A DNA stretch of 64,000 bases, from contig JBMNKP010000001.1 of the NCBI GenBank assembly GCA_050952265.1, forward strand, positions 431,596-495,595, written 5' to 3'. The notes beneath the pieces are model-generated. The model did no database searches and had not been told where the DNA came from. It saw only the letters and a list, made by a program, of their open reading frames with translations. Each line of letters begins with the position of its first letter. The first letter of the stretch is position 1. The DNA is from Limnochordia bacterium. Lineage in GTDB: Bacteria; Bacillota; Limnochordia; Darwinibacteriales; Darwinibacteriaceae. Positions 8,449-39,806 of the stretch are shown in pieces. The position numbers and the translations under genes were made by a program.

Positions 8449-9377
8449 TGGGCGATCTTCTTGCCATGATGTTTAACACCACAGTCTTTGCTGCCGCACT
8501 GCGCATGGCCACTCCCTTGATCTTCGCTGCGCTGGGCGGGATCATCTCCGAACGGAGCGGCGTTGTGAATATTGCCCTTGAGGGGATGATGCTCACGGGA
8601 TCGTTTACGGCCATGTTCGTCACCCACCTCACGGGGCTGCCCTGGGTGGGGGCGTTGGGTGCCATGGCGGCAGGCGCGTTGATGGGGCTTCTTCACGCTC
8701 TCTTCTGCGTGCGCTACCGGTCGAATCAAGTGGTTACCGGCACTGCCATCAACATCTTTGCCGGCGGGTTGACCGTCTTCCTGCTGCGGCATTTCTTCGG
8801 CTCCGCGGGTACTTCTCCACAAGTGACGGTGATCAAAGACATCACTATCCCGGTGCTGTCGCAGATTCCGTGGGTTGACAAGGTTTTGGGCAGACAGAAT
8901 CCCCTGGTATACTTGGCCTTCGTCGCCGTGGCCGTGGTGCACGTAGTCATCTACAAAACGCCTTGGGGTTTGAGGCTCAGAGCGGTGGGCGAACATCCCC
9001 AGGCCGCCGATACAGTGGGCGTCAACGTCTACAGAATGCGCTACACAGCCGTCGCGATCAGCGGTGCCCTCGCTGCCCTGGGCGGCACCTATCTTTCCAT
9101 AGCCCATCTCAGCCGCTTCAGTGAAGGGATGACAGCGGGCCGCGGCTTCATCGCCCTGGCAGCCGTCATATTCGGCAAGTGGACCCCCCTCGGGGCACTG
9201 GGCGCCTGCCTGTTCTTCGGCTACGGCGATGCTCTGCAGATGCGCCTGTCGGATGTTGGCATCCCCACGCAGTTCCTGAACATGCTGCCTTACGTGATGA
9301 CCATGGTGGCCCTGGCCGGCTTCATCGGCAAAGCCGTCGGGCCAAAGGCTTCTGGCCAGCCGTACATCAAAGGTTAG
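8445..9377 (+). CDS. ABC transporter permease (second subunit)
   Basis: Multi-TM protein. ATGA overlap with the preceding permease gene. Confidence 0.8.
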   Translation: MMGDLLAMMFNTTVFAAALRMATPLIFAALGGIISERSGVVNIALEGMMLTGSFTAMFVTHLTGLPWVGALGAMAAGALMGLLHALFCVRYRSNQVVTGTAINIFAGGLTVFLLRHFFGSAGTSPQVTVIKDITIPVLSQIPWVDKVLGRQNPLVYLAFVAVAVVHVVIYKTPWGLRLRAVGEHPQAADTVGVNVYRMRYTAVAISGALAALGGTYLSIAHLSRFSEGMTAGRGFIALAAVIFGKWTPLGALGACLFFGYGDALQMRLSDVGIPTQFLNMLPYVMTMVALAGFIGKAVGPKASGQPYIKG

Positions 9378-9397
9378 ATAGCGAGGTTTAGCACGAA

Positions 9398-11125
9398 TTG
9401 AAGGATCTGAAGAGGTTTGTTTCCTACTACAAGCCGGAGCTCCGCCTCTTCACTGCGGATCTGCTCGCGGCCAGCGTTATCGCCGTACTCGATCTGTTGT
9501 TTCCCATCATCACCCGTACCTTCATGAAAGACTTCATTCCCGGCCGAAATGTGCGGGCGGTGCTGGTCTGGGCCGGTGTGCTGGCAGCTTTATACCTGGT
9601 GCGCTTGCTCTGCACCTATTTTGTCGATTACTACGGCCATGTGGTGGGCGTGAACATCGAGTACCGCATGCGCAAGGATCTCTTTGCCCACCTGCAGACC
9701 CTGGACTTCCGCTTTTTTGACGATACCAAGGTAGGACACCTGATGAGCAGGATCGTCAATGACCTGCGGGACATCACGGAACTCGCCCACCACGGGCCTG
9801 AGGATCTGTTCATCGCCACGCTGATGCTGATCGGTTCCTTTCTCTACCTGTTGAGCATCAACGTGCCGCTGACCCTGATCACCTTTGTGTTTATCCCCTT
9901 GATCGGTGGCTATGCCTACAAGACCCGCACGAAGATGAATGAGGCATTCCGGGAAGAGCGCCGCAAGATCGCCGATGTGAACGCAGATCTTGAGAACAGC
10001 CTGTCAGGCATCAGGGTTGCCCAGAGCTTCGTCAACGAAGCCTACGAGATCAAGCGTTTCGATGCGGCAAACGCCTCTTTTAAGACATCGCGCTACAAAG
10101 CGATGCGGGCCATGGCGGTATATTCCTCCGGCCTGGGGTTTCTCACCGACCTGCTGAACGTGGCTGTCCTGACATGCGGCGCCCTGTTCATGTTCCGGGG
10201 ACACATCGATCTTGCGGATCTCACTGCTTACCTCATGTTCATCGGTTACTTCCTCCAGCCGATCCGGAGGCTGATCTCCTTCACCCAGCAGTACCAGCAG
10301 GGCATGGCAGGGTTCCGGCGCTTTGCCGAGCTGATGGAAGTTCAGCCGTCGGTGAGCGATCGGCCGGGTGCTGTGGATCTGCCGCCTGTGAAGGGAGATA
10401 TCGAGCTGCGGGATGTGTCCTTCCACTATGCGGAAGACAGCGAAGTCCTGCACAACGTAAACCTGACGTTACCTGCCGGCAGTACCGTGGCCTTCGTCGG
10501 CCCGTCGGGCGGGGGAAAGACCACCCTCTGTCACCTGATCCCCCGGTTCTACGATGTGGCCGAGGGGGCGGTGCTCATCGACGGGCACGATGTGCGGGAT
10601 GTCACCCTGAGCTCTCTGCGGCAGCAGATCGGCTTTGTGCAGCAGGATGTGTTCCTCTTCACCGGAACGATCAGGGAGAACATCCTCTACGGCAATCCCT
10701 CTGCCTCAGAGGAGGAGATGGTTGCCGCCGCGAAGCGGGCTCAGATCCACGATTTCGTGATGAGCCTGAAGGACGGCTACGACACCTACGTGGGTGAACG
10801 GGGCGTCAAGCTGTCCGGCGGCCAGAAGCAGCGCATTTCCATCGCCCGTGTTTTCCTGAAGAATCCGCCCATCCTGATCCTGGATGAAGCGACCTCTTCC
10901 CTTGACACCGCAACGGAAGTCGAGATTCAGGAAGCCCTTATGGAGCTGGCAAAAGACCGCACCACGCTGATCATCGCCCACCGGCTGAGCACCATCAGGC
11001 ACGCAGACGAGATTGTGGTGCTCACCGAAGGAAGGATCCGCGAGCGGGGTACCCATGGAGAACTCATGGCGAAAAACGGACTGTACGCGAAGCTCTGTGC
11101 CGCCCAGATGGAGCAGGTGATCTGA
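9398..11125 (+). CDS. ABC exporter, fused permease / ATP-binding protein (MsbA-like)
   Basis: N-terminal six-TM domain followed by an NBD with GPSGGGKTT, LSGGQKQR and ILILDEATSSLD. Confidence 0.85.
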   Translation: MKDLKRFVSYYKPELRLFTADLLAASVIAVLDLLFPIITRTFMKDFIPGRNVRAVLVWAGVLAALYLVRLLCTYFVDYYGHVVGVNIEYRMRKDLFAHLQTLDFRFFDDTKVGHLMSRIVNDLRDITELAHHGPEDLFIATLMLIGSFLYLLSINVPLTLITFVFIPLIGGYAYKTRTKMNEAFREERRKIADVNADLENSLSGIRVAQSFVNEAYEIKRFDAANASFKTSRYKAMRAMAVYSSGLGFLTDLLNVAVLTCGALFMFRGHIDLADLTAYLMFIGYFLQPIRRLISFTQQYQQGMAGFRRFAELMEVQPSVSDRPGAVDLPPVKGDIELRDVSFHYAEDSEVLHNVNLTLPAGSTVAFVGPSGGGKTTLCHLIPRFYDVAEGAVLIDGHDVRDVTLSSLRQQIGFVQQDVFLFTGTIRENILYGNPSASEEEMVAAAKRAQIHDFVMSLKDGYDTYVGERGVKLSGGQKQRISIARVFLKNPPILILDEATSSLDTATEVEIQEALMELAKDRTTLIIAHRLSTIRHADEIVVLTEGRIRERGTHGELMAKNGLYAKLCAAQMEQVI

Positions 11126-30268: not shown

Positions 30269-30406
30269 CCTGGGTTCCCCATAGGGTTGAGGGCAGGAGG
30301 TTATCGTTCTGCATAAAGGATTTAATGATAAACATGAAATAGTTATTGACACACATAAAACCGCCGTGCTATGCTGAGATCAAGAAGTTCAAAGGAGGCC
30401 ACAACT

Positions 30407-31009
30407 ATGCAGGCAGCAGAAGCACGGCTGGCGGCTAAGTTCGCCGGACCGGTCAGAACAGTACTCAAGGTCTTTCATTGGGCTGGGATCGTTGCCCTCG
30501 TCCTCGCAGTGCTCATGGCGGTGTTCACTGTGCTCGGACCTGACCGCTACTTCGCACCAGAACGCTTCGCCAGCAGCAGCTTCACCTTCGAGCTCAACGG
30601 GCTCGTGCGCTACCGGGTAGACACCGCCAAGATCGATCCCGCGCGGGGCGTGAGGGAGGTATTCCAGGGCATTGCTGCGGCAGCCATCGTCTATCTCCTC
30701 TTCTTTATCTTCATCGTGCTGCGTTTGCGGCAGGTGATGGACACGGTGGCTTCGGGCAACCCCTTCCATCCGGGCAACCCCAAGCGGGTTCGGGACATCG
30801 GTGCGGCTGTGATCGCAGGTGGCTTCATATTCCCCGCCGCCAACAGCTGGGTCGCGGTGAAGATGATATCCACCTTTTCCCTTGCCGGTTTTTCCGTCAC
30901 CTATTCCCCCGATGTGGAGCTGGCCTTCATCGGATTCTTGCTCACAGTGCTGGCGGCGGTGTTTGCCTACGGCTGCTACCTGCAGCAGGAAATGGATCAG
31001 ACGGTCTAG
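30407..31009 (+). CDS. DUF2975-like membrane protein
   Basis: Four TM segments. Classic partner of the small YozG-type HTH regulator that follows. ATG 30407 lies 8 nt after AAAGGAGG. Confidence 0.55.
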   Translation: MQAAEARLAAKFAGPVRTVLKVFHWAGIVALVLAVLMAVFTVLGPDRYFAPERFASSSFTFELNGLVRYRVDTAKIDPARGVREVFQGIAAAAIVYLLFFIFIVLRLRQVMDTVASGNPFHPGNPKRVRDIGAAVIAGGFIFPAANSWVAVKMISTFSLAGFSVTYSPDVELAFIGFLLTVLAAVFAYGCYLQQEMDQTV

Positions 31010-31019
31010 GAGGGTCCTT

Positions 31020-31235
31020 ATGCCTATCATCGTGAGACTCGATCGGGTCTTAGCCGACCGCAAAATGCCCCTCACCGTTCTCGCCGAAAAGGTTGGAATT
31101 TCCCTGGTCAACCTGTCGAACCTGAAGACAGGGAAAGTGAAGGCCATCCGCTTCAGCACTCTCGAGGCCATCTGCCGGGAGCTGGAGTGCCAGCCGGGAG
31201 ACATCTTGGAGTATCAAGAAGAAGCCAGCAGCTGA
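31020..31235 (+). CDS. yozG: YozG-like helix-turn-helix transcriptional regulator (71 aa)
   Basis: MPIIVRLDRVLADRKMPLTVLAEKVGISLVNLSNLKTGKVKAIRFSTLEAICRELECQPGDILEY is near-collinear with B. subtilis YozG. Confidence 0.75.
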   Translation: MPIIVRLDRVLADRKMPLTVLAEKVGISLVNLSNLKTGKVKAIRFSTLEAICRELECQPGDILEYQEEASS

Positions 31236-31248
31236 TGCTGGCTTTTTC
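31224..31248 (+). terminator. Rho-independent terminator overlapping the yozG stop
   Basis: GCCAGCAGCTGATGCTGGC hairpin followed by TTTTTC. Confidence 0.6.
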
Positions 31249-31330
31249 GCGGGCAGGAGCATTGTCAGGAGGAGGAGCGACTGATACCATAATAGGAAAG
31301 AAGCGAGCGGGTGCTTGAACGAGGTGGACC

Positions 31331-33967
31331 ATGGGGAGAAGAGTGGTGGGCATCCTGGCCCATGTCGATGCAGGGAAAACCACATTATCCGAGAGCATGC
31401 TCTACGTAAGCGGCCGCATCCAGCGTTTGGGCCGGGTGGACAAGGGCGATGCCTACCTCGATACCCACGATCTTGAGCGGGAGCGGGGCATCACCATCTT
31501 TGCCAAGCAGGCTGTTTTCCATTTCGGCGGCACGGAGTTCACTCTGCTGGACACCCCCGGCCATGTCGATTTTTCCCCCGAAATGGAAAGGACTCTGCAG
31601 GTTCTGGACAGCGCAATCCTCGTGATCAGCGCCGCAGACGGCGTACAGGGGCACTCCAGCACGATCTGGCGCCTGCTGGAACTGTACAGGCTCCCCGTCT
31701 TCATCTTTGTCAACAAGATGGACCAGCCCAAGGCAGATCGGGAGGCACTCCTGAGGGAGCTCTGGGAAGTGCTGGACGCCCGCTGCGTCGATCTTACCTC
31801 CGAGGACTTCCTGGAGCAGGCAGCCCTTTGCAGCGAGGAACTCCTCCAGGAGTACACGGCCACCGGCACCCTGACTCCCGAATCCATCCAGGCTGCAGTT
31901 GCCGGCCGCCGGCTCTTTCCAGTCTATTTCGGCTCGGCCCTCAAGGTAGAGGGCGTACTTGAATTCCTGGAAGGGCTTGCCGCCTATACGAAAGAGCCGT
32001 GCTATCACCGAGAGTTTGGGGCCCGGGTCTTCAAGATTTCCCGCGATGACCAGGGCGCCCGCCTCACACACCTGAAGATCACGGGCGGGAGCCTGAAGGT
32101 TAAGGATGCCGTGCAGGGGAGCGGTTGGGAAGAAAAAGTCAACCAGATCCGGGTTTATTCGGGCGGGAAGTACGAAGTGGTCCAGGAGGTGGGTCCGGGA
32201 ACGGTCTGCGCAGTAACGGGGCTCAGCCGCACCAGGCCAGGAGACGGCTTGGGGGCGGAGGGGCAGGCGCGCACTCCTGTACTGGAGCCTGTGCTGGCCT
32301 ACCGCATCATCCTCCCTGAGGGATGCGATGCCCGCAACATCCTGCCCAAACTCCGGGAGCTCGAGGAAGAAGAGCCCGCGCTGCACATCCTCTGGGATGA
32401 GCTGCTGCAGGAGATCCAAGTCCAGCTCATGGGAGAGGTGCAGACCGAGATCCTGCAGCGCCTGATCGCGGAGCGCTTTGGCCTTCTGGTACAGTTTGGC
32501 GAAGGCAGCATCCTGTACAAAGAGACCATCTCGAGCGCGGTTGAGGGTGTGGGGCACTTCGAGCCCATGGGGCACTATGCAGAAGTCCACCTGCTGCTGG
32601 AGCCCGGTGAGCGGGGCAGCGGGCTGGAGTTTGCCGTGGGCTGCAGCGAAGATGTGCTGGCCAAGAACTGGCAGCGCCTGATCCTCACCCACCTCCAGGA
32701 AAAAACCCATGTGGGCGTCCTGACTGGTTCGCCCATCACCGATATGAAGATCACCTTGGTCGGGGGACAGGCAAGCAGGGAGATCACGGAAGGGGGAGAC
32801 TTCCGGGAAGCCACCTACCGGGCCGTGCGCCAGGGGCTCATGGAAGCCCGTTCCGTCCTTCTGGAACCCTATTACTCCTTCCGCCTGGAGGTCCCGGAAA
32901 AGCAGGTCGGCCGCGCCATGAGCGACATGGAAAAGATGCAGGCAAGCTGGGAGCTTGCTCCTTCAGTTGGGGAGTCAGCCGTTTTGGTGGGCAGTGCACC
33001 TGTGGTAACCATGCGCAACTACCACCGGGAAGTAGCCGCATATACCAGAGGTTTGGGGCGCCTTTCGCTGAGCGTTGAGGGCTACCGGCCGTGCCACAAT
33101 GCTCAGGATGTGATCGCTGCCATCGGCTACGACCCGGAGCGCGATGCGGCCAACCCCTCCGGCTCGATCTTTTTCTTCAACGGCTCAAGCGTGTACGTGC
33201 CCTGGCACGAGGTCAAGCGCGTGATGCACGCACCCGCTTTCCTTCAGGAGGAGAAGCGGCAGGCAGGCTCCGGCCCCGTTATCAGGCATCCAGTGACGAG
33301 CTCCGCCGACGACTACGAGGACTGGGGTTTCTGGGACACCGCCGCGAACCGGGGAACACAGGCAGGCTTCAAGCAGAGCAGGGCCGCGGGCGGGAAGCAG
33401 GACAGGCAGGCTGCTTCCGGCCGGCTGCCCGAGCCCCGGGAACAGTACCTCCTTGTAGACGGCTACAACGTCATCCATGCCTGGCCCGAGCTGAAAGAGC
33501 TGGCCGAGGACAACATGGATATCGCGCGCATCCGGCTGCTCGATGCCCTCGCCAACTACCAGGGACTGAAGCAGAACAAGGTCATGGTGGTATTTGACGC
33601 TTACGCGGTGCCCGACCGCACCGTGGCCGAGGTTGAACAGCACCACAACATCCAAGTCGTGTACACCAAAGAAGCCCAGACGGCCGACGAGTACATCGAG
33701 AAGTTCGCCTACGATTTCAAGAAAGACTACGAAATCGTGGTTGCCACCAACGACGCCCTGCAGCAGGTGATCCTGCGGAGCGCGGGCTGTGCGCTGCTCT
33801 CCGCACGGGAGCTCAAGGAAGAATTAGAGGCGGCCCGAGAAAGGCTGGAAACGACCTACAAGAACAGGCGGAGGCTGGGCCGCGCTGCTCTGGAAGAAGG
33901 GCTCCCTGAGGAAATCAGGGAGCGGATGGAAGAGATCAGGCAGAATGCAGGGAGGAAGAAGCAGTGA
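31331..33967 (+). CDS. fusion protein: Tet(M)/EF-G-like ribosome-binding translational GTPase (about 640 aa) + low-complexity linker + Rae1/YacP-like NYN endoribonuclease domain (878 aa total)
   Basis: G1 AHVDAGKTT, G3 DTPGHVDF and G4 NKMD; overall collinear with Tet(M)/Tet(O). Residues about 720-860 (LLVDGYNVIHAWPELKEL, VMVVFDAY, VVYTKEAQTADEYIEKFA, VVATNDALQQ, SARELKEELE) match B. subtilis YacP/Rae1. Single uninterrupted frame. Confidence 0.75.
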   Translation: MGRRVVGILAHVDAGKTTLSESMLYVSGRIQRLGRVDKGDAYLDTHDLERERGITIFAKQAVFHFGGTEFTLLDTPGHVDFSPEMERTLQVLDSAILVISAADGVQGHSSTIWRLLELYRLPVFIFVNKMDQPKADREALLRELWEVLDARCVDLTSEDFLEQAALCSEELLQEYTATGTLTPESIQAAVAGRRLFPVYFGSALKVEGVLEFLEGLAAYTKEPCYHREFGARVFKISRDDQGARLTHLKITGGSLKVKDAVQGSGWEEKVNQIRVYSGGKYEVVQEVGPGTVCAVTGLSRTRPGDGLGAEGQARTPVLEPVLAYRIILPEGCDARNILPKLRELEEEEPALHILWDELLQEIQVQLMGEVQTEILQRLIAERFGLLVQFGEGSILYKETISSAVEGVGHFEPMGHYAEVHLLLEPGERGSGLEFAVGCSEDVLAKNWQRLILTHLQEKTHVGVLTGSPITDMKITLVGGQASREITEGGDFREATYRAVRQGLMEARSVLLEPYYSFRLEVPEKQVGRAMSDMEKMQASWELAPSVGESAVLVGSAPVVTMRNYHREVAAYTRGLGRLSLSVEGYRPCHNAQDVIAAIGYDPERDAANPSGSIFFFNGSSVYVPWHEVKRVMHAPAFLQEEKRQAGSGPVIRHPVTSSADDYEDWGFWDTAANRGTQAGFKQSRAAGGKQDRQAASGRLPEPREQYLLVDGYNVIHAWPELKELAEDNMDIARIRLLDALANYQGLKQNKVMVVFDAYAVPDRTVAEVEQHHNIQVVYTKEAQTADEYIEKFAYDFKKDYEIVVATNDALQQVILRSAGCALLSARELKEELEAARERLETTYKNRRRLGRAALEEGLPEEIRERMEEIRQNAGRKKQ

Positions 33968-34671
33968 TAGAGCAGATCAAACAGGAACTCCAGAAGTACA
34001 GCAATCCGGAAAAAGCAGAGTTCCTGCTCAAGTACTTCCAGGTAAAGCCTGGCGGTTACGGCGAGGGGGACATCCTGTGGGGCATCACTGTCCCCGACCA
34101 GCGGCGGGTAGCCCGGAAGTTCTACCGCCAGATCTCCCTGGCCGAACTGGAGGCCCTGCTGCGGGACCCCATCCACGAGTGCCGCTTTACCGCCCTAGCT
34201 ATGGCGGTGCCAAAGTTTAAGCGGGCCAAGAGCGAAGCCGAGCGCAGAGAAATCGTGGAGCTCTACCTCGGAGCCGCCGATTTCATCAACAACTGGGATC
34301 TGGTGGATACCTCCGCACCTAACATCTTAGGCGCCTATCTCTACGATCGCGATCGCAGCGTCCTGTGGGAGCTGGCCCGCTCGGGGCATCTCTGGCGCCA
34401 GCGCATCGCTGTGCTCGCGACTCAATACTTCATAAGTAAGGGAGACTTTGCCGACACCTTAAGGCTCGCCGAGTTCTTCCTCGATCACGAGCATGACCTG
34501 ATGCACAAGGCCGTTGGCTGGATGCTGCGGGAGATCGGCAAACGGGACTTTGAGACCGAGTACGCCTTTCTCCAGGAGCACTACCGCAGAATGCCCCGCA
34601 CCATGCTGCGCTACGCCATAGAGAAGTTCGACCCCGACCTGAGAAAGGCGTTCCTAAACGGGTCAATCTAA
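33964..34671 (+). CDS. DNA alkylation repair protein (AlkD-like HEAT-repeat family)
   Basis: GTG start overlaps the stop of the fusion gene (GTGA). N-terminus YSNPEKAEFLLKYFQVKPG...ITVPDQRRVARKF resembles the AlkC/AlkD family. Confidence 0.65.
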   Translation: MIEQIKQELQKYSNPEKAEFLLKYFQVKPGGYGEGDILWGITVPDQRRVARKFYRQISLAELEALLRDPIHECRFTALAMAVPKFKRAKSEAERREIVELYLGAADFINNWDLVDTSAPNILGAYLYDRDRSVLWELARSGHLWRQRIAVLATQYFISKGDFADTLRLAEFFLDHEHDLMHKAVGWMLREIGKRDFETEYAFLQEHYRRMPRTMLRYAIEKFDPDLRKAFLNGSI

Positions 34672-37770: not shown

Positions 37771-37900
37771 GGAAGTGAATATTTGGCAAACCATGAGAAA
37801 TCATGGGACGCAAAGCTAGAGGGGCTAAGCACGTTACGTGTATGCCAGCCAGTTGCGGTTTCGAATGCTTCCTAACTGCCTGGTTGGGAAGCGTTTTTTT
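37771..37900 (+). promoter_or_regulatory. candidate c-di-GMP-I (GEMM) riboswitch with intrinsic-terminator expression platform
   Basis: UUUGGCAAACCAUGAGAAAUCAUGGGACGCAAAGC parallels the V. cholerae Vc2 aptamer core GGGCAAACCAUUCGAAAGAGUGGGACGCAAAGCC, including the GAAA tetraloop hairpin. The 3' P1 strand GCUUCC doubles as the 5' arm of terminator GCTTCC-N13-GGGAAGC plus T7 (37867-37900). The gene ATG is at 37920. Confidence 0.55.
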
Positions 37901-37919
37901 ATGCCTAGGGGGGTTGGGA

Positions 37920-39806
37920 ATGACAAACGGAGTATCGTTGTCCAATTTGGGCGCGGAATCGTCGAAAGAATTAGAAAAAATAACCGAAAATGTAGTAGAA
38001 GCCGATCAGATCGACCGGGAGGGAAGGCTTGCCGTCGTCTGCGGGCAGCTGCGCATGGAAGAGCCGCAGGGGCGAGGCGCCTGGCCGGTGATTGTACCTG
38101 GTCCTCACCTGAGCCTGCGCCAGGGGGACAAGCTGGTCACAGGGCCGACAATTGTGGAGAGCCTGGAGGGCTTTTCCATCGCGCTCCAGCACGAGCCGCC
38201 GCAGAGCAAGTTTGAGCTGATCGTTTCCCGGGACAGGATGAAGGTGACCTTGAAAACGCGCTTTCGTTTCGGGACGGTGTACAAGCTGCGGGATGAGGAG
38301 TTTCAGCAGCGGCTGGTGCTCAAAGCGGTTCCGGCTGCAGACGTGCCGCCTAAGCCGATCGATCCCGCGTTGGTCTTGGCCAAGCTGCAGGAAATGGGTG
38401 TTCAACCTGAGACAGTCGAGACTGACCTGCTCCTGCAGGCCTGCAGTGAATGCCGCGATGCCGATGTGGTGATCGCCCGGGGCGTCGCGCCCGTTCCTCC
38501 AGTGGACGGTCGTGTGGAACTGGTCTGTGACCTCAAGCCCCGGGTCCCCAGTGAGAAGGAGGGCGACCGGGTAGACATTTTGGACCGAGGCACCTATAAC
38601 GCTGTGAATGCCGGCGAAGTCTTGGCCGTACTCCATCCTTCTGAACCGGGCAAGCCCGGGAAAGATGTCTTCGGCCGCGAGGTTCCGCCCCGGCTGCCGC
38701 GCCCGGTGCAGTTCACGGCAGGGCCCGGTGTGAAGTTGATCAAGGACGGGCGGATCGCCGTCGCCGAAGTGACCGGAAGGCCCACTTTCCAGCGGGGGGT
38801 GCTGCAGGTCAACACTCAGCTCGTGATCGGCGGGAATGTGACGGTAGCTTCGGGGAACGTCGATTTCAAAGGCGATGTGTTGATCATGGGCGATGTGGAA
38901 GAATCTCTGACCGTTAGGGCTGGCGGCGGGGTTGATGTGTACGGCAGCGCTTACCATGCGACTATTATCGCCGATGGGGGAGTGACCATCGCTGGCAAGC
39001 TGATCGGAGGCTCTGTGATCGCCGGCATCAATCAGCCAGGACTTGCAAAGGCCGTCAAGCTCTTGAGCTGGCTGGACCGTGATCTGGATCAGCTTCTTTC
39101 TGCTTTTTATCAGCTCCGGGAACATCTTGCTGGGAGCGGGAACTCCTTTGGCTGGCGCGGCGACGGCTACCTGATCAAAGTCCTGCTGGAGACCCGCCTG
39201 CCCCAGATCCCGAAACACTTTGGTCAGCTGCACGAGCTGCTGAGCGGCGACCTGGATCCCGGTGCAGAAGAGCTTGCCAAGTCGTCCGCGGCTTTGAAGT
39301 ATATCGCTGAAAGGTTTCTAGGTGCAGCCCCTCTGGAGATCGCCTGCTCTGAAGAGGTCGCCCGTTACCGGCTGCAGCTGCGCACCCTTGCCAGTCAACT
39401 GGAGGAGCACGTTGACGCGGCAGCAGATGTCGTGGTGCACTACTGTCAGAACGCTAAGATCGAGGCTACCGGTAATGTTACGGTGGCAGGTCTGCTGATC
39501 TACGACTGCGAGATCACTGCCGGGAAGACTTTGGAATTGGGCGGGCAGTGCCGCAGCGGCTCCTATACCGGTTCCTCCATTTATGCCCAGGTGGTGGGTT
39601 CCACTGGCATGGGAGCGCCGTCTCTAACGGTGTGCGACGGAGGGGTGATCGCGGCTCGCCGGTTCTGCTCCGGAGTGCGGCTGCGGATCGGCTCTGTGCA
39701 GGGGACCATCGGTACAGATTGTGCCAACAGGCTGTTTTACGCGAGCGATGGCGAACTGCACAGCAGGCACTACCAGTCCCGGCGAGAGGCAGTGCCTCCA
39801 GCATGA
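37920..39806 (+). CDS. DUF342 (FapA-like) beta-helical protein
   Basis: Repeated GNVTVASGNVDFKGDVLIMGDV...AGGGVDVYGS segments. Start set at ATG 37920 after GGGGGG; the ORF-track N-terminal extension (from 37803) would run through the riboswitch terminator and is rejected. Confidence 0.75.
   Translation: MTNGVSLSNLGAESSKELEKITENVVEADQIDREGRLAVVCGQLRMEEPQGRGAWPVIVPGPHLSLRQGDKLVTGPTIVESLEGFSIALQHEPPQSKFELIVSRDRMKVTLKTRFRFGTVYKLRDEEFQQRLVLKAVPAADVPPKPIDPALVLAKLQEMGVQPETVETDLLLQACSECRDADVVIARGVAPVPPVDGRVELVCDLKPRVPSEKEGDRVDILDRGTYNAVNAGEVLAVLHPSEPGKPGKDVFGREVPPRLPRPVQFTAGPGVKLIKDGRIAVAEVTGRPTFQRGVLQVNTQLVIGGNVTVASGNVDFKGDVLIMGDVEESLTVRAGGGVDVYGSAYHATIIADGGVTIAGKLIGGSVIAGINQPGLAKAVKLLSWLDRDLDQLLSAFYQLREHLAGSGNSFGWRGDGYLIKVLLETRLPQIPKHFGQLHELLSGDLDPGAEELAKSSAALKYIAERFLGAAPLEIACSEEVARYRLQLRTLASQLEEHVDAAADVVVHYCQNAKIEATGNVTVAGLLIYDCEITAGKTLELGGQCRSGSYTGSSIYAQVVGSTGMGAPSLTVCDGGVIAARRFCSGVRLRIGSVQGTIGTDCANRLFYASDGELHSRHYQSRREAVPPA

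Follow-up and report, generated by a model that had tools for sequence, protein, structure and literature searches.

A Limnochordia member of a widespread protein family that joins an EF-G/Tet-like translational GTPase to a Rae1-type endoribonuclease

This study concerns a gene for a two-enzyme protein in a stretch of 64,000 nucleotides from a Limnochordia bacterium (contig JBMNKP010000001.1 of assembly GCA_050952265.1), which is referred to as the window. The gene (31331-33967, plus strand; 878 codons and a stop codon) encodes an EF-G/Tet-like translational GTPase that is joined through a tether to an NYN endoribonuclease of the Rae1/YacP type, as judged from its single open reading frame (ORF), its Pfam architecture and its relatives. 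The range of the family to which it belongs covers Clostridia, Limnochordia-like bacteria and Desulfitobacteriaceae. By analogy with stand-alone Rae1, we give a probability of about one half to the reading that the fusion is a GTPase-delivered, ribosome-dependent endoribonuclease for stalled ribosomes, which would make it a one-polypeptide counterpart of that enzyme. An earlier reading of the DNA, here called the original prediction, had proposed the fusion together with several functional interpretations, and all factual elements of its observation were confirmed.

The fusion gene forms one frame without interruption over 878 amino acids, as had been claimed, and the GC content is even across the fusion junction. 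Its start codon is an ATG, which is preceded by GAGGTGG. The peptide strings that had been quoted are all present in the translation, and the proposed domain architecture was borne out by Pfam profile searches. The resulting layout comprises the EF-G/Tet-like GTPase at residues 4-591, a folded block at 589-636, the tether at 641-701 and the NYN domain at 707-870. An AlphaFold2 model of the fusion, based on a 79-sequence alignment, has a mean predicted local distance difference test (pLDDT) score of 77 and predicts a confident EF-G-like body as well as two long helices after the NYN domain.

The G domain (residues 4-220; 31340-31990, plus strand) is matched by GTP_EFTU (PF00009) with an E-value of 1.2e-49 and contains the motifs G1 (AHVDAGKTT), G3 (DTPGHVDF, including the catalytic His78), G4 (NKMD) and G5 (GSALK), beside which a RGITI motif is also present. 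All G-domain motifs that had been listed from the DNA were found, and they are essentially invariant among 199 family members, the set on which the conservation values given here are based: K16, T17, T55, D74, G77, N128, K129 and D131 are invariant (K16 and T17 fall into a gap in one member), and His78 is kept in 198. Domains II, III, IV and V of the EF-G fold follow (residues 229-591; 32015-33103, plus strand; assigned by Pfam and Foldseek), with domains II-V in EF-G order. EF-G_D2 (229-307, 4.4e-09), EFG_IV (393-506, 2e-15) and EFG_C (509-591, 1.6e-14) lie above the Pfam cut-offs, and the EFG_III match (319-390) is weak, at 21.4 bits versus a cut-off of 27. In a Foldseek search with the GTPase body, EF-G structures were the top matches (2.5e-52).

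Domain IV is the region of highest conservation, with a mean column identity of 0.83. Its tip loop lies at residues 478-492, and alignments to TetO and EF-G place GGQASREITEGGDF at residues 479-492 (32765-32806, plus strand). The family consensus of this loop is G-R-A-H-x-x-H-T-x-G-G-D-F-R, in which the His at position 482 aligns with EF-G His573 (T. thermophilus numbering). Judged by these alignments, the tip loop is EF-G-like yet family-specific.

The nuclease half (residues 707-870; 33449-33940, plus strand) was identified by profile and structure. The NYN/YacP domain, which had been placed at residues of about 720-860, was found as NYN_YacP (PF05991) at 707-870, with an E-value of 3.5e-50 and 170.7 bits versus a gathering threshold of 24.6, and the match spans positions 1-165 of the 166-position profile. 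The same region matches Bacillus subtilis Rae1 (PDB 5MQ9) with an E-value of 4.5e-26, and this alignment agrees with the string matches to Rae1 reported earlier. Rae1 residues D7, D53, D81 and D104, counted along the 5MQ9 sequence, align to D710, D756, D786 and D808. The retention of the NYN active-site residues, which had also been claimed, holds for all aligned Asp and Asn residues: D710, N713, D756, D786 and D808 are kept in 199 of 199 family members. The identity of these residues as catalytic rests on the 5MQ9 alignment and on Matelska et al. (2017, PMC5499597), where a D-G-Y-N motif and at least four catalytic Asp residues characterize NYN_YacP proteins; both features are present in the fusion. 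The catalytic centres of both halves are intact, and the mean column identity of the NYN core is 0.77. A separate AlphaFold2 model of the C-terminal domain superimposes on 5MQ9 with a root-mean-square deviation of 1.7 A over 137 columns at 41% identity (TM-score 0.73, normalised to the target). The two basic C-terminal helices are predicted at residues 825-854 and 860-873.

Between the two enzymatic halves lie two segments of very different character. A conserved block directly after domain V (residues 589-636; 33095-33238, plus strand) follows the pattern CHN..EV...GYD.E.D..NP.GS.F...G....V.W..VK..MH, with a mean column identity of 0.76, and is predicted by AlphaFold2 to form one helix, a beta-hairpin and a short helix (pLDDT of about 80-92); Pfam gave no match for it. 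The net-basic tether that follows (residues 641-701; 33251-33433, plus strand) corresponds to the low-complexity linker of the original prediction and is predicted to be disordered (pLDDT 25-34). Within the family, the tether comprises 58-118 residues (median 72) with a median net charge of +3 and a mean column identity of 0.13, and it harbors a semi-conserved motif, N-x-G-[KR]-[KR]-x-x-W-[KN]-[RK]. Taken together, the column identities point to strong purifying selection on both enzymatic halves and on domain IV, the putative decoding-site probe.

In the original prediction, the fusion was not known to have been described. However, the architecture is already known and the window protein is a bona fide member of the family. 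Atkinson (2015, BMC Genomics, PMC4342817) found a YacP-like NYN domain in Tet proteins from ten clostridial species and named RNase activity for testing. Matelska et al. (2017, Nucleic Acids Research, PMC5499597) listed 'TetM-NYN_YacP fusion proteins' in some Clostridia, called their role unclear and mentioned occasional co-expression with helix-turn-helix (HTH) genes. Furthermore, RefSeq names members "NYN domain-containing protein", "translation factor GTPase family protein" or "TetM/TetW/TetO/TetS family...".

The family is also very common. Among 5.8 billion proteins, a word-indexed search listed at least 120 protein clusters of 869-906 amino acids and 58-75% identity, every listed one with PF05991 and EF-G-type domains. 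They originate from Limnochordia (Ca. Darwinibacter acetoxidans, 75%), Acetivibrio thermocellus, Pseudoclostridium, Desulfotomaculum, Desulfosporosinus, Herbinix and Anaerovoracaceae, the nearest relatives being Limnochordia-type Bacillota with 73-75% identity. A scan of one genome per species with NYN-domain patterns matched at least 600 stretches, at least 590 of which were confirmed, and the best 80 of these confirmed stretches all run from domain IV to the NYN domain, i.e., they are fusions. The matches include gut Lachnospiraceae (Enterocloster, Mediterraneibacter, Roseburia, Blautia and Dorea) as well as Desulfitobacterium, Clostridium, Anaerovorax, Peptostreptococcaceae and Flavonifractor. 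With respect to its phyletic spread, the combination of GTPase and NYN_YacP is thus widespread in Clostridia and their relatives.

An exhaustive search yielded representatives at 50% identity, the top 150 of which are nearly all 830-1000 amino acids long, with the 150th still at 639 bits; the family size is well above 100 clusters at this identity. A hidden Markov model of the NYN region found the nuclease in 144 of these 150, most exceptions being fragments, and related loci whose contig covers the whole gene always have one ORF of about 850-975 amino acids. Because of these two observations, we consider the fusion obligatory in the family. A chimeric join or a missed stop codon, which had been raised as a possible undoing of the original prediction, is ruled out by the single ORF at every fully covered related locus. 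The fusion is an old, stable and very widespread architecture and not an assembly artefact.

Within this family, the window copy is an ordinary, slightly atypical member. Two residues separate it from the public cluster representative. At the 395 columns that are conserved to at least 90%, it has 16 deviations (family median 7, maximum 17), which ranks it second among 79 sequences. In the tip loop, it carries S482 and I485 (32774-32785), where His is found in 194 and 196 of the 199 members, respectively. Furthermore, N807 (33749-33751), next to the catalytic D808, replaces a Ser that is present in 198 of 199, a substitution that is unique among them. The first tip-loop His is also missing in two relatives, L006 and P0014, and position 482 seems to be relaxed in the clade of the window. 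From these substitutions (H482S, H485I and S807N), the window copy may be functionally atypical. A compensated frameshift behind the changed tip loop was considered and rejected, as QASREIT does not appear when the DNA of the relatives is translated out of frame, and pseudogene-like decay is not supported, since 16 deviations are at the high end but within the family range.

EF-G binds to ribosomes in the rotated pre-translocation state, which is also that of the trapped trailing ribosome in a collision, and in the EF-G fold the chain turns back towards domain IV after domain V. For the fusion, we infer ribosome binding, the ribosome state that is recognised, mRNA as the substrate and a link to rescue. 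The GTP-bound GTPase module would dock in the ribosomal factor-binding site in the manner of EF-G and Tet proteins, with domain IV probing the decoding (A-site) region. Docking on a ribosome that is unable to proceed, either stalled or trailing in a collision, would hold the tethered nuclease beside the bound mRNA, and because EF-G recognises rotated ribosomes, the one that trails in a collision would be an attractive target. The tethered NYN domain would cut the ribosome-bound mRNA, GTP hydrolysis would free the factor, and the truncated message would pass to transfer-messenger RNA (tmRNA) or other rescue pathways. With such a course of the chain, the tether would emerge near the decoding centre. 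Its 58-118 residues could reach the A-site mRNA, the entry channel or a neighbouring ribosome, and therefore geometry alone does not fix the target.

The analogy rests on stand-alone Rae1, a ribosome-dependent mRNA endonuclease at stalled or collided ribosomes that feeds tmRNA (PMC12407103; PMC13622287); according to a 2026 preprint, it generates tmRNA substrates from collided ribosomes (PMC13622287). While the general idea of the original prediction, a GTPase that delivers a tethered Rae1-type nuclease, is reasonable, one of its premises does not hold. Cleavage inside the A-site, there called established for Rae1, was a proposal of 2017 that Rae1's discoverers withdrew in 2025-26, and the revised cleavage site lies at the tail of stalled or collided ribosomes, 12 nt upstream of the A-site codon.

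Several points weigh against a GTPase-delivered nuclease for stalled ribosomes. Rae1 is now placed at the mRNA exit side, away from the A-site, beside which an EF-G-like factor docks, and therefore the model needs the long tether or a neighbouring collided ribosome. No experimental study of any member of the fusion family was found in the literature, and the substrate could equally be rRNA or tRNA. Moreover, the window copy departs from near-invariant residues at the three positions described above, and its activity may differ.

The proposal can be sharpened, at the price of a more tentative claim, to a bacterial single-polypeptide no-go-decay factor: the GTPase would recognise either the rotated trailing ribosome of a collision, which is unable to translocate, or a stalled ribosome whose factor site is accessible, and its GTP-gated docking would license the tethered nuclease to cut the mRNA between ribosomes and thereby feed tmRNA rescue. 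We regard this version as possible rather than probable.

A different substrate would give the protein a different role. As a ribosome-directed rRNA or tRNA nuclease, acting for instance near h44, H69 or the sarcin-ricin loop, the fusion would serve ribosome inactivation, turnover or maturation and not mRNA surveillance. The first functional prediction for NYN_YacP proteins, together with the canonical mrnC-rlmB-yacP gene context, pointed to rRNA or tRNA processing, and a tether that, from EF-G topology, probably emerges beside domain IV would bring the nuclease near the decoding-centre rRNA. However, Rae1, the sole characterised NYN_YacP enzyme, cuts mRNA; the NYN domain of the fusion is 41% identical to it and keeps its C-terminal helices, and no rRNA-processing genes are conserved beside the fusion. 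We therefore consider this alternative rather unlikely.

In the genomic context, no conserved operon partner was found by BLAST clustering, phmmer or a Pfam census of the flanks. Clustering of the ORFs within 5 kb at 85 loci gave no cluster in more than 12 loci, the largest ones being generic ABC and MATE transporters. Searches with phmmer, seeded with AlkD, Pur_DNA_glyco, Tag, HTH and peptide deformylase sequences, returned the AlkD-like gene in the clade of the window only and the others at 1-2 loci each. In the Pfam census, 146 families were counted among 78 nearest downstream genes, with DNA_alkylation on top with 4, and 135 families among 65 nearest upstream genes, with MatE on top with 3. 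This absence of a partner fits a self-sufficient housekeeping factor. HTH neighbours are sporadic, being limited to loci L001 and L003 and to the HTH_26 regulator upstream of the fusion in the clade of the window. In Acetivibrio thermocellus, the neighbours of the fusion are a GH26 dockerin protein and a Crp-type regulator.

The downstream gene of the window (33964-34671, plus strand) encodes an AlkD-like protein with HEAT-like repeats and lies, as a neighbour specific to the clade, outside the conserved unit. The original prediction had described it as AlkD-like with a GTG overlapping the stop codon of the fusion, and both statements are correct: DNA_alkylation (PF08713) matches with an E-value of 4e-61 and 206.9 bits versus a gathering threshold of 21 (NCBIfam gave no match for this protein), and its GTG (33964-33966) overlaps the TGA of the fusion (33965-33967) as GTGA, about 10 nt downstream of a GGGAGGA Shine-Dalgarno sequence. 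The loci L001, L005 and L006, whose fusions are 73-75% identical, are syntenic with the window in the order cation-efflux gene, DUF2975, HTH_26, fusion, AlkD-like gene, LysM and PGA_cap.

From this arrangement, a nucleic-acid damage response module had been deduced. In its most explicit form, restricted to the lineage of the window, the fusion would cut alkylated mRNA on stalled ribosomes and AlkD would repair the DNA. Alkylated mRNA indeed stalls ribosomes and triggers tmRNA rescue in E. coli (PMC7521929). The overlap, which measures 4 nt in the window, where it comes with a good Shine-Dalgarno sequence, recurs in L005 with 10 or 11 nt. Furthermore, in Desulfosporosinus sp. SB140 (L004, CP144211.1), an unrelated alkylpurine glycosylase (Pur_DNA_glyco, PF02245; 8731-9351) is encoded 79 nt downstream of the fusion, and Tag (PF03352; 289-849) 5 kb upstream of it. 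Nevertheless, as a property of the family such a module fails: the AlkD-like gene is adjacent at only 4 of 78 loci (the window, L001, L005 and L006), all of one clade, and even there it starts about 630-655 nt beyond the fusion in L001 and L006, with two small genes, one of them HTH, in the gap of L001. Two other Desulfosporosinus loci, L009 and L013, lack the glycosylase neighbour, the nearest downstream genes are highly diverse, and any estimate of enrichment is post hoc. The two independent adjacencies of alkylation glycosylases do not amount to a pattern and are no more than a curiosity, and a damage module is very unlikely even for the lineage of the window.

The resemblance to Tet proteins raises the possibility of a variant tetracycline ribosomal-protection protein whose nuclease aids antibiotic resistance, an idea already raised by Atkinson (2015), and several database names place members in the TetM/W/O/S family. 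The label Tet(M), used in the original prediction, is right insofar as the protein is collinear with these proteins over residues 6-588 and tet_protect (NF012153) is its best NCBIfam model. However, the score of 402.7 bits is about half of the curated equivalog cut-off of 775. The EF-G models come next with 272-317 bits, far below the EF-G equivalog cut-offs, and the models for Tet(M)/Tet(W), Tet(Q) and Otr(A) (NF012153 subfamilies) are also far below their cut-offs. Among sequence matches in the PDB, TetO is on top, but nearly tied with EF-G (238.6 versus 236.2 bits).

In TetM and TetO, as seen by cryo-electron microscopy, it is the Tyr-Ser-Pro-Val-Ser loop of domain IV that dislodges tetracycline. 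This YSPVS motif is absent from the tip loops of the window and the family: TetO YGLYYSPVSTPADFR aligns with GGQASREITEGGDFR of the window and with G-R-A-H-x-x-H-T-x-G-G-D-F of the family, and in the family the EF-G-like A-H-x-x-H-T stands in its place. Because of the score of 402.7 versus 775 bits and the missing loop, the sequence argues against a tetracycline-protection protein. Furthermore, the gene is a widespread chromosomal one with variable housekeeping neighbours, not on mobile elements, and efflux neighbours are occasional only (MatE at 2-3 loci on each side). A role in tetracycline resistance is therefore highly improbable.

An abortive-infection or toxin-like system for translation shut-off, likewise put forward earlier, is scarcely credible: ribosome-dependent RNases are common toxins, but PADLOC assigned 0 families to the fusion and the AlkD-like protein, no antitoxin-like neighbour is conserved, the gene is chromosomal across Clostridia, and no real phage or plasmid copies were found. 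In plasmid and phage collections, fusion-type matches occurred only on replicons of 252 and 518 kb and on two virome scaffolds, the labels of which are unverified. Of these two scaffolds, MT835514.1 ('UNVERIFIED: Bacteriophage sp.') was the one examined, and its supposedly phage-borne copy was rejected, as the stretch examined is bacterial chromosome without phage genes. It carries genes for FeoB, ZIP, RsmH, the fusion, GltX, a RelA_SpoT small alarmone synthetase, GlpK and cardiolipin synthase, and its label is wrong; this context of rsmH, gltX and small alarmone synthetase was not seen again at other loci.

With respect to stand-alone Rae1, no second NYN gene is present in the 64-kb window, and a search seeded with the stand-alone Rae1 of C. 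difficile returned Peptostreptococcaceae only. The C. difficile 'plasmid' pZ1322HCD0102-3 (PLSDB NZ_CP149721.1) carries the core genes cysS, mrnC-like, thyX, rlmB, yacP, sigH, tuf, rpmG, secE, nusG and rplK. The record probably represents a piece of chromosome from a single-cell assembly and shows the canonical context of stand-alone Rae1 in a Clostridium, in the order cysS-mrnC-thyX-rlmB-yacP-sigH.

On the 5' side of the fusion in the window, a DUF2975 membrane protein (30371-31009) and an HTH_26 regulator (31020-31235) are encoded on the plus strand (together 30371-31235; assigned by Pfam and context), a pair that is kept in the closest relatives only. The regulator has 71 amino acids; the listed ORF (30882-31235) starts too early, and translation probably begins at the ATG at 31020, which lies behind GGAGGG. 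The intergenic region (31222-31290, plus strand) contains a hairpin and a short T-run, which follow the HTH_26 gene (about 31222-31249), and a promoter-like TTGTCA-17-TACCAT (31262-31290), identified from the sequence and a consensus scan; both are pattern matches only. A terminator had been proposed at 31224-31248, and while the hairpin and short T-run are indeed there, the formal score in the scan was obtained on the minus strand only. Rfam revealed no regulatory RNA near the fusion gene. Farther downstream, a c-di-GMP-I riboswitch (RF01051) was identified at 37775-37860 on the plus strand (71.9 bits versus a gathering threshold of 35), at the 5' end of the ORF 37803-39806, whose syntenic counterpart in Ca. 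Darwinibacter is FapA-like (PF03961/PF20250). An ORF of 441 amino acids antisense to the fusion gene (31385-32710, minus strand) and one of 271 amino acids antisense to DUF2975 are, like other long antisense ORFs in the window, typical shadow ORFs of DNA with about 60% GC and not genes to call. Elsewhere in the family, the region downstream of the fusion in Desulfotomaculum (L003, BAAHYV010000007.1) encodes an HTH_3 regulator and, after it, peptide deformylase (9144-9833); the same pair is found 8 kb from the fusion in L032, and such a translation-related neighbour was seen twice only.

Although the window adds just one more member, the family has become an attractive target, as Rae1 was tied to stalled or collided ribosomes and to tmRNA rescue only in 2025-26. 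The data suggest that many Clostridia, including abundant human-gut Lachnospiraceae, may couple a Rae1-type nuclease to GTP-driven ribosome docking. If so, this would represent a new way for bacteria to choose the ribosomes whose mRNA is cut, as well as a natural probe for the site at which Rae1-type nucleases act on the ribosome. Should the no-go-decay version be true, GTPase-coupled collision sensing distinct from SmrB, MutS2 and stand-alone Rae1 would be widespread in gut and environmental Clostridia. Furthermore, the frequent TetM/W/O/S resistance labels on genes of this family, against which the evidence argues, inflate resistome counts.

In comparison with known systems, the closest are the TetM-like/NYN_YacP fusions already described (PMC4342817; PMC5499597), with which the window protein shares an identical domain architecture and the taxonomic group (Bacillota, mainly Clostridia), and it is 58-75% identical to annotated members such as those from Ca. 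Darwinibacter acetoxidans, Acetivibrio thermocellus and Desulfosporosinus. Nothing essential sets it apart from them, the additions of the window being H482S, H485I and S807N and the clade-specific overlap with the AlkD-like gene. The family itself, in contrast, has by far outgrown the 'ten species' of 2015, with at least 590 confirmed matches, the best 80 of which are all fusions.

Rae1/YacP of B. subtilis (PDB 5MQ8 and 5MQ9) has the NYN_YacP fold, the DGYN motif, the four catalytic Asp residues and the C-terminal helices in common with the fusion. It is, however, a stand-alone protein of about 170-180 amino acids that is encoded in the gltX...rlmB-yacP-sigH operon and finds the ribosome alone, whereas the nuclease of the fusion is tethered to a GTPase and encoded in unrelated, variable contexts and not in the cysS-mrnC-rlmB-yacP-sigH neighbourhood. 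With Tet(M) and Tet(O), the fusion shares the layout of five domains as well as a short G' region, and residues 6-588 are collinear with these proteins, but it has the additional post-domain-V block, tether and nuclease, lies off mobile elements and lacks YSPVS. EF-G is the best structural match of the fusion body, all GTPase motifs are common to both, and the tip-loop His of the family aligns with His573. Nevertheless, the identity in structural alignments is about 25%, loop 1 of domain IV is family-specific (GVGHFEP..HYAEVH), and the C-terminal nuclease sets the fusion apart from EF-G.

A similar logic, in which a sensor of stalled or collided ribosomes is combined with a nuclease, or an A-site factor is delivered by a GTPase, is found in MutS2 of B. 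subtilis, SmrB of E. coli and Cue2/NONU-1 with Hbs1-Dom34 of eukaryotes, a comparison that draws on established knowledge and on references within PMC12407103. In MutS2, too, an NTPase and a nuclease-type (SMR) domain are fused. However, the folds of these systems (SMR domains, the MutS ATPase and the eRF1-like Dom34) are unrelated to those of the fusion, and none of them combines an EF-G-type GTPase with an NYN nuclease.

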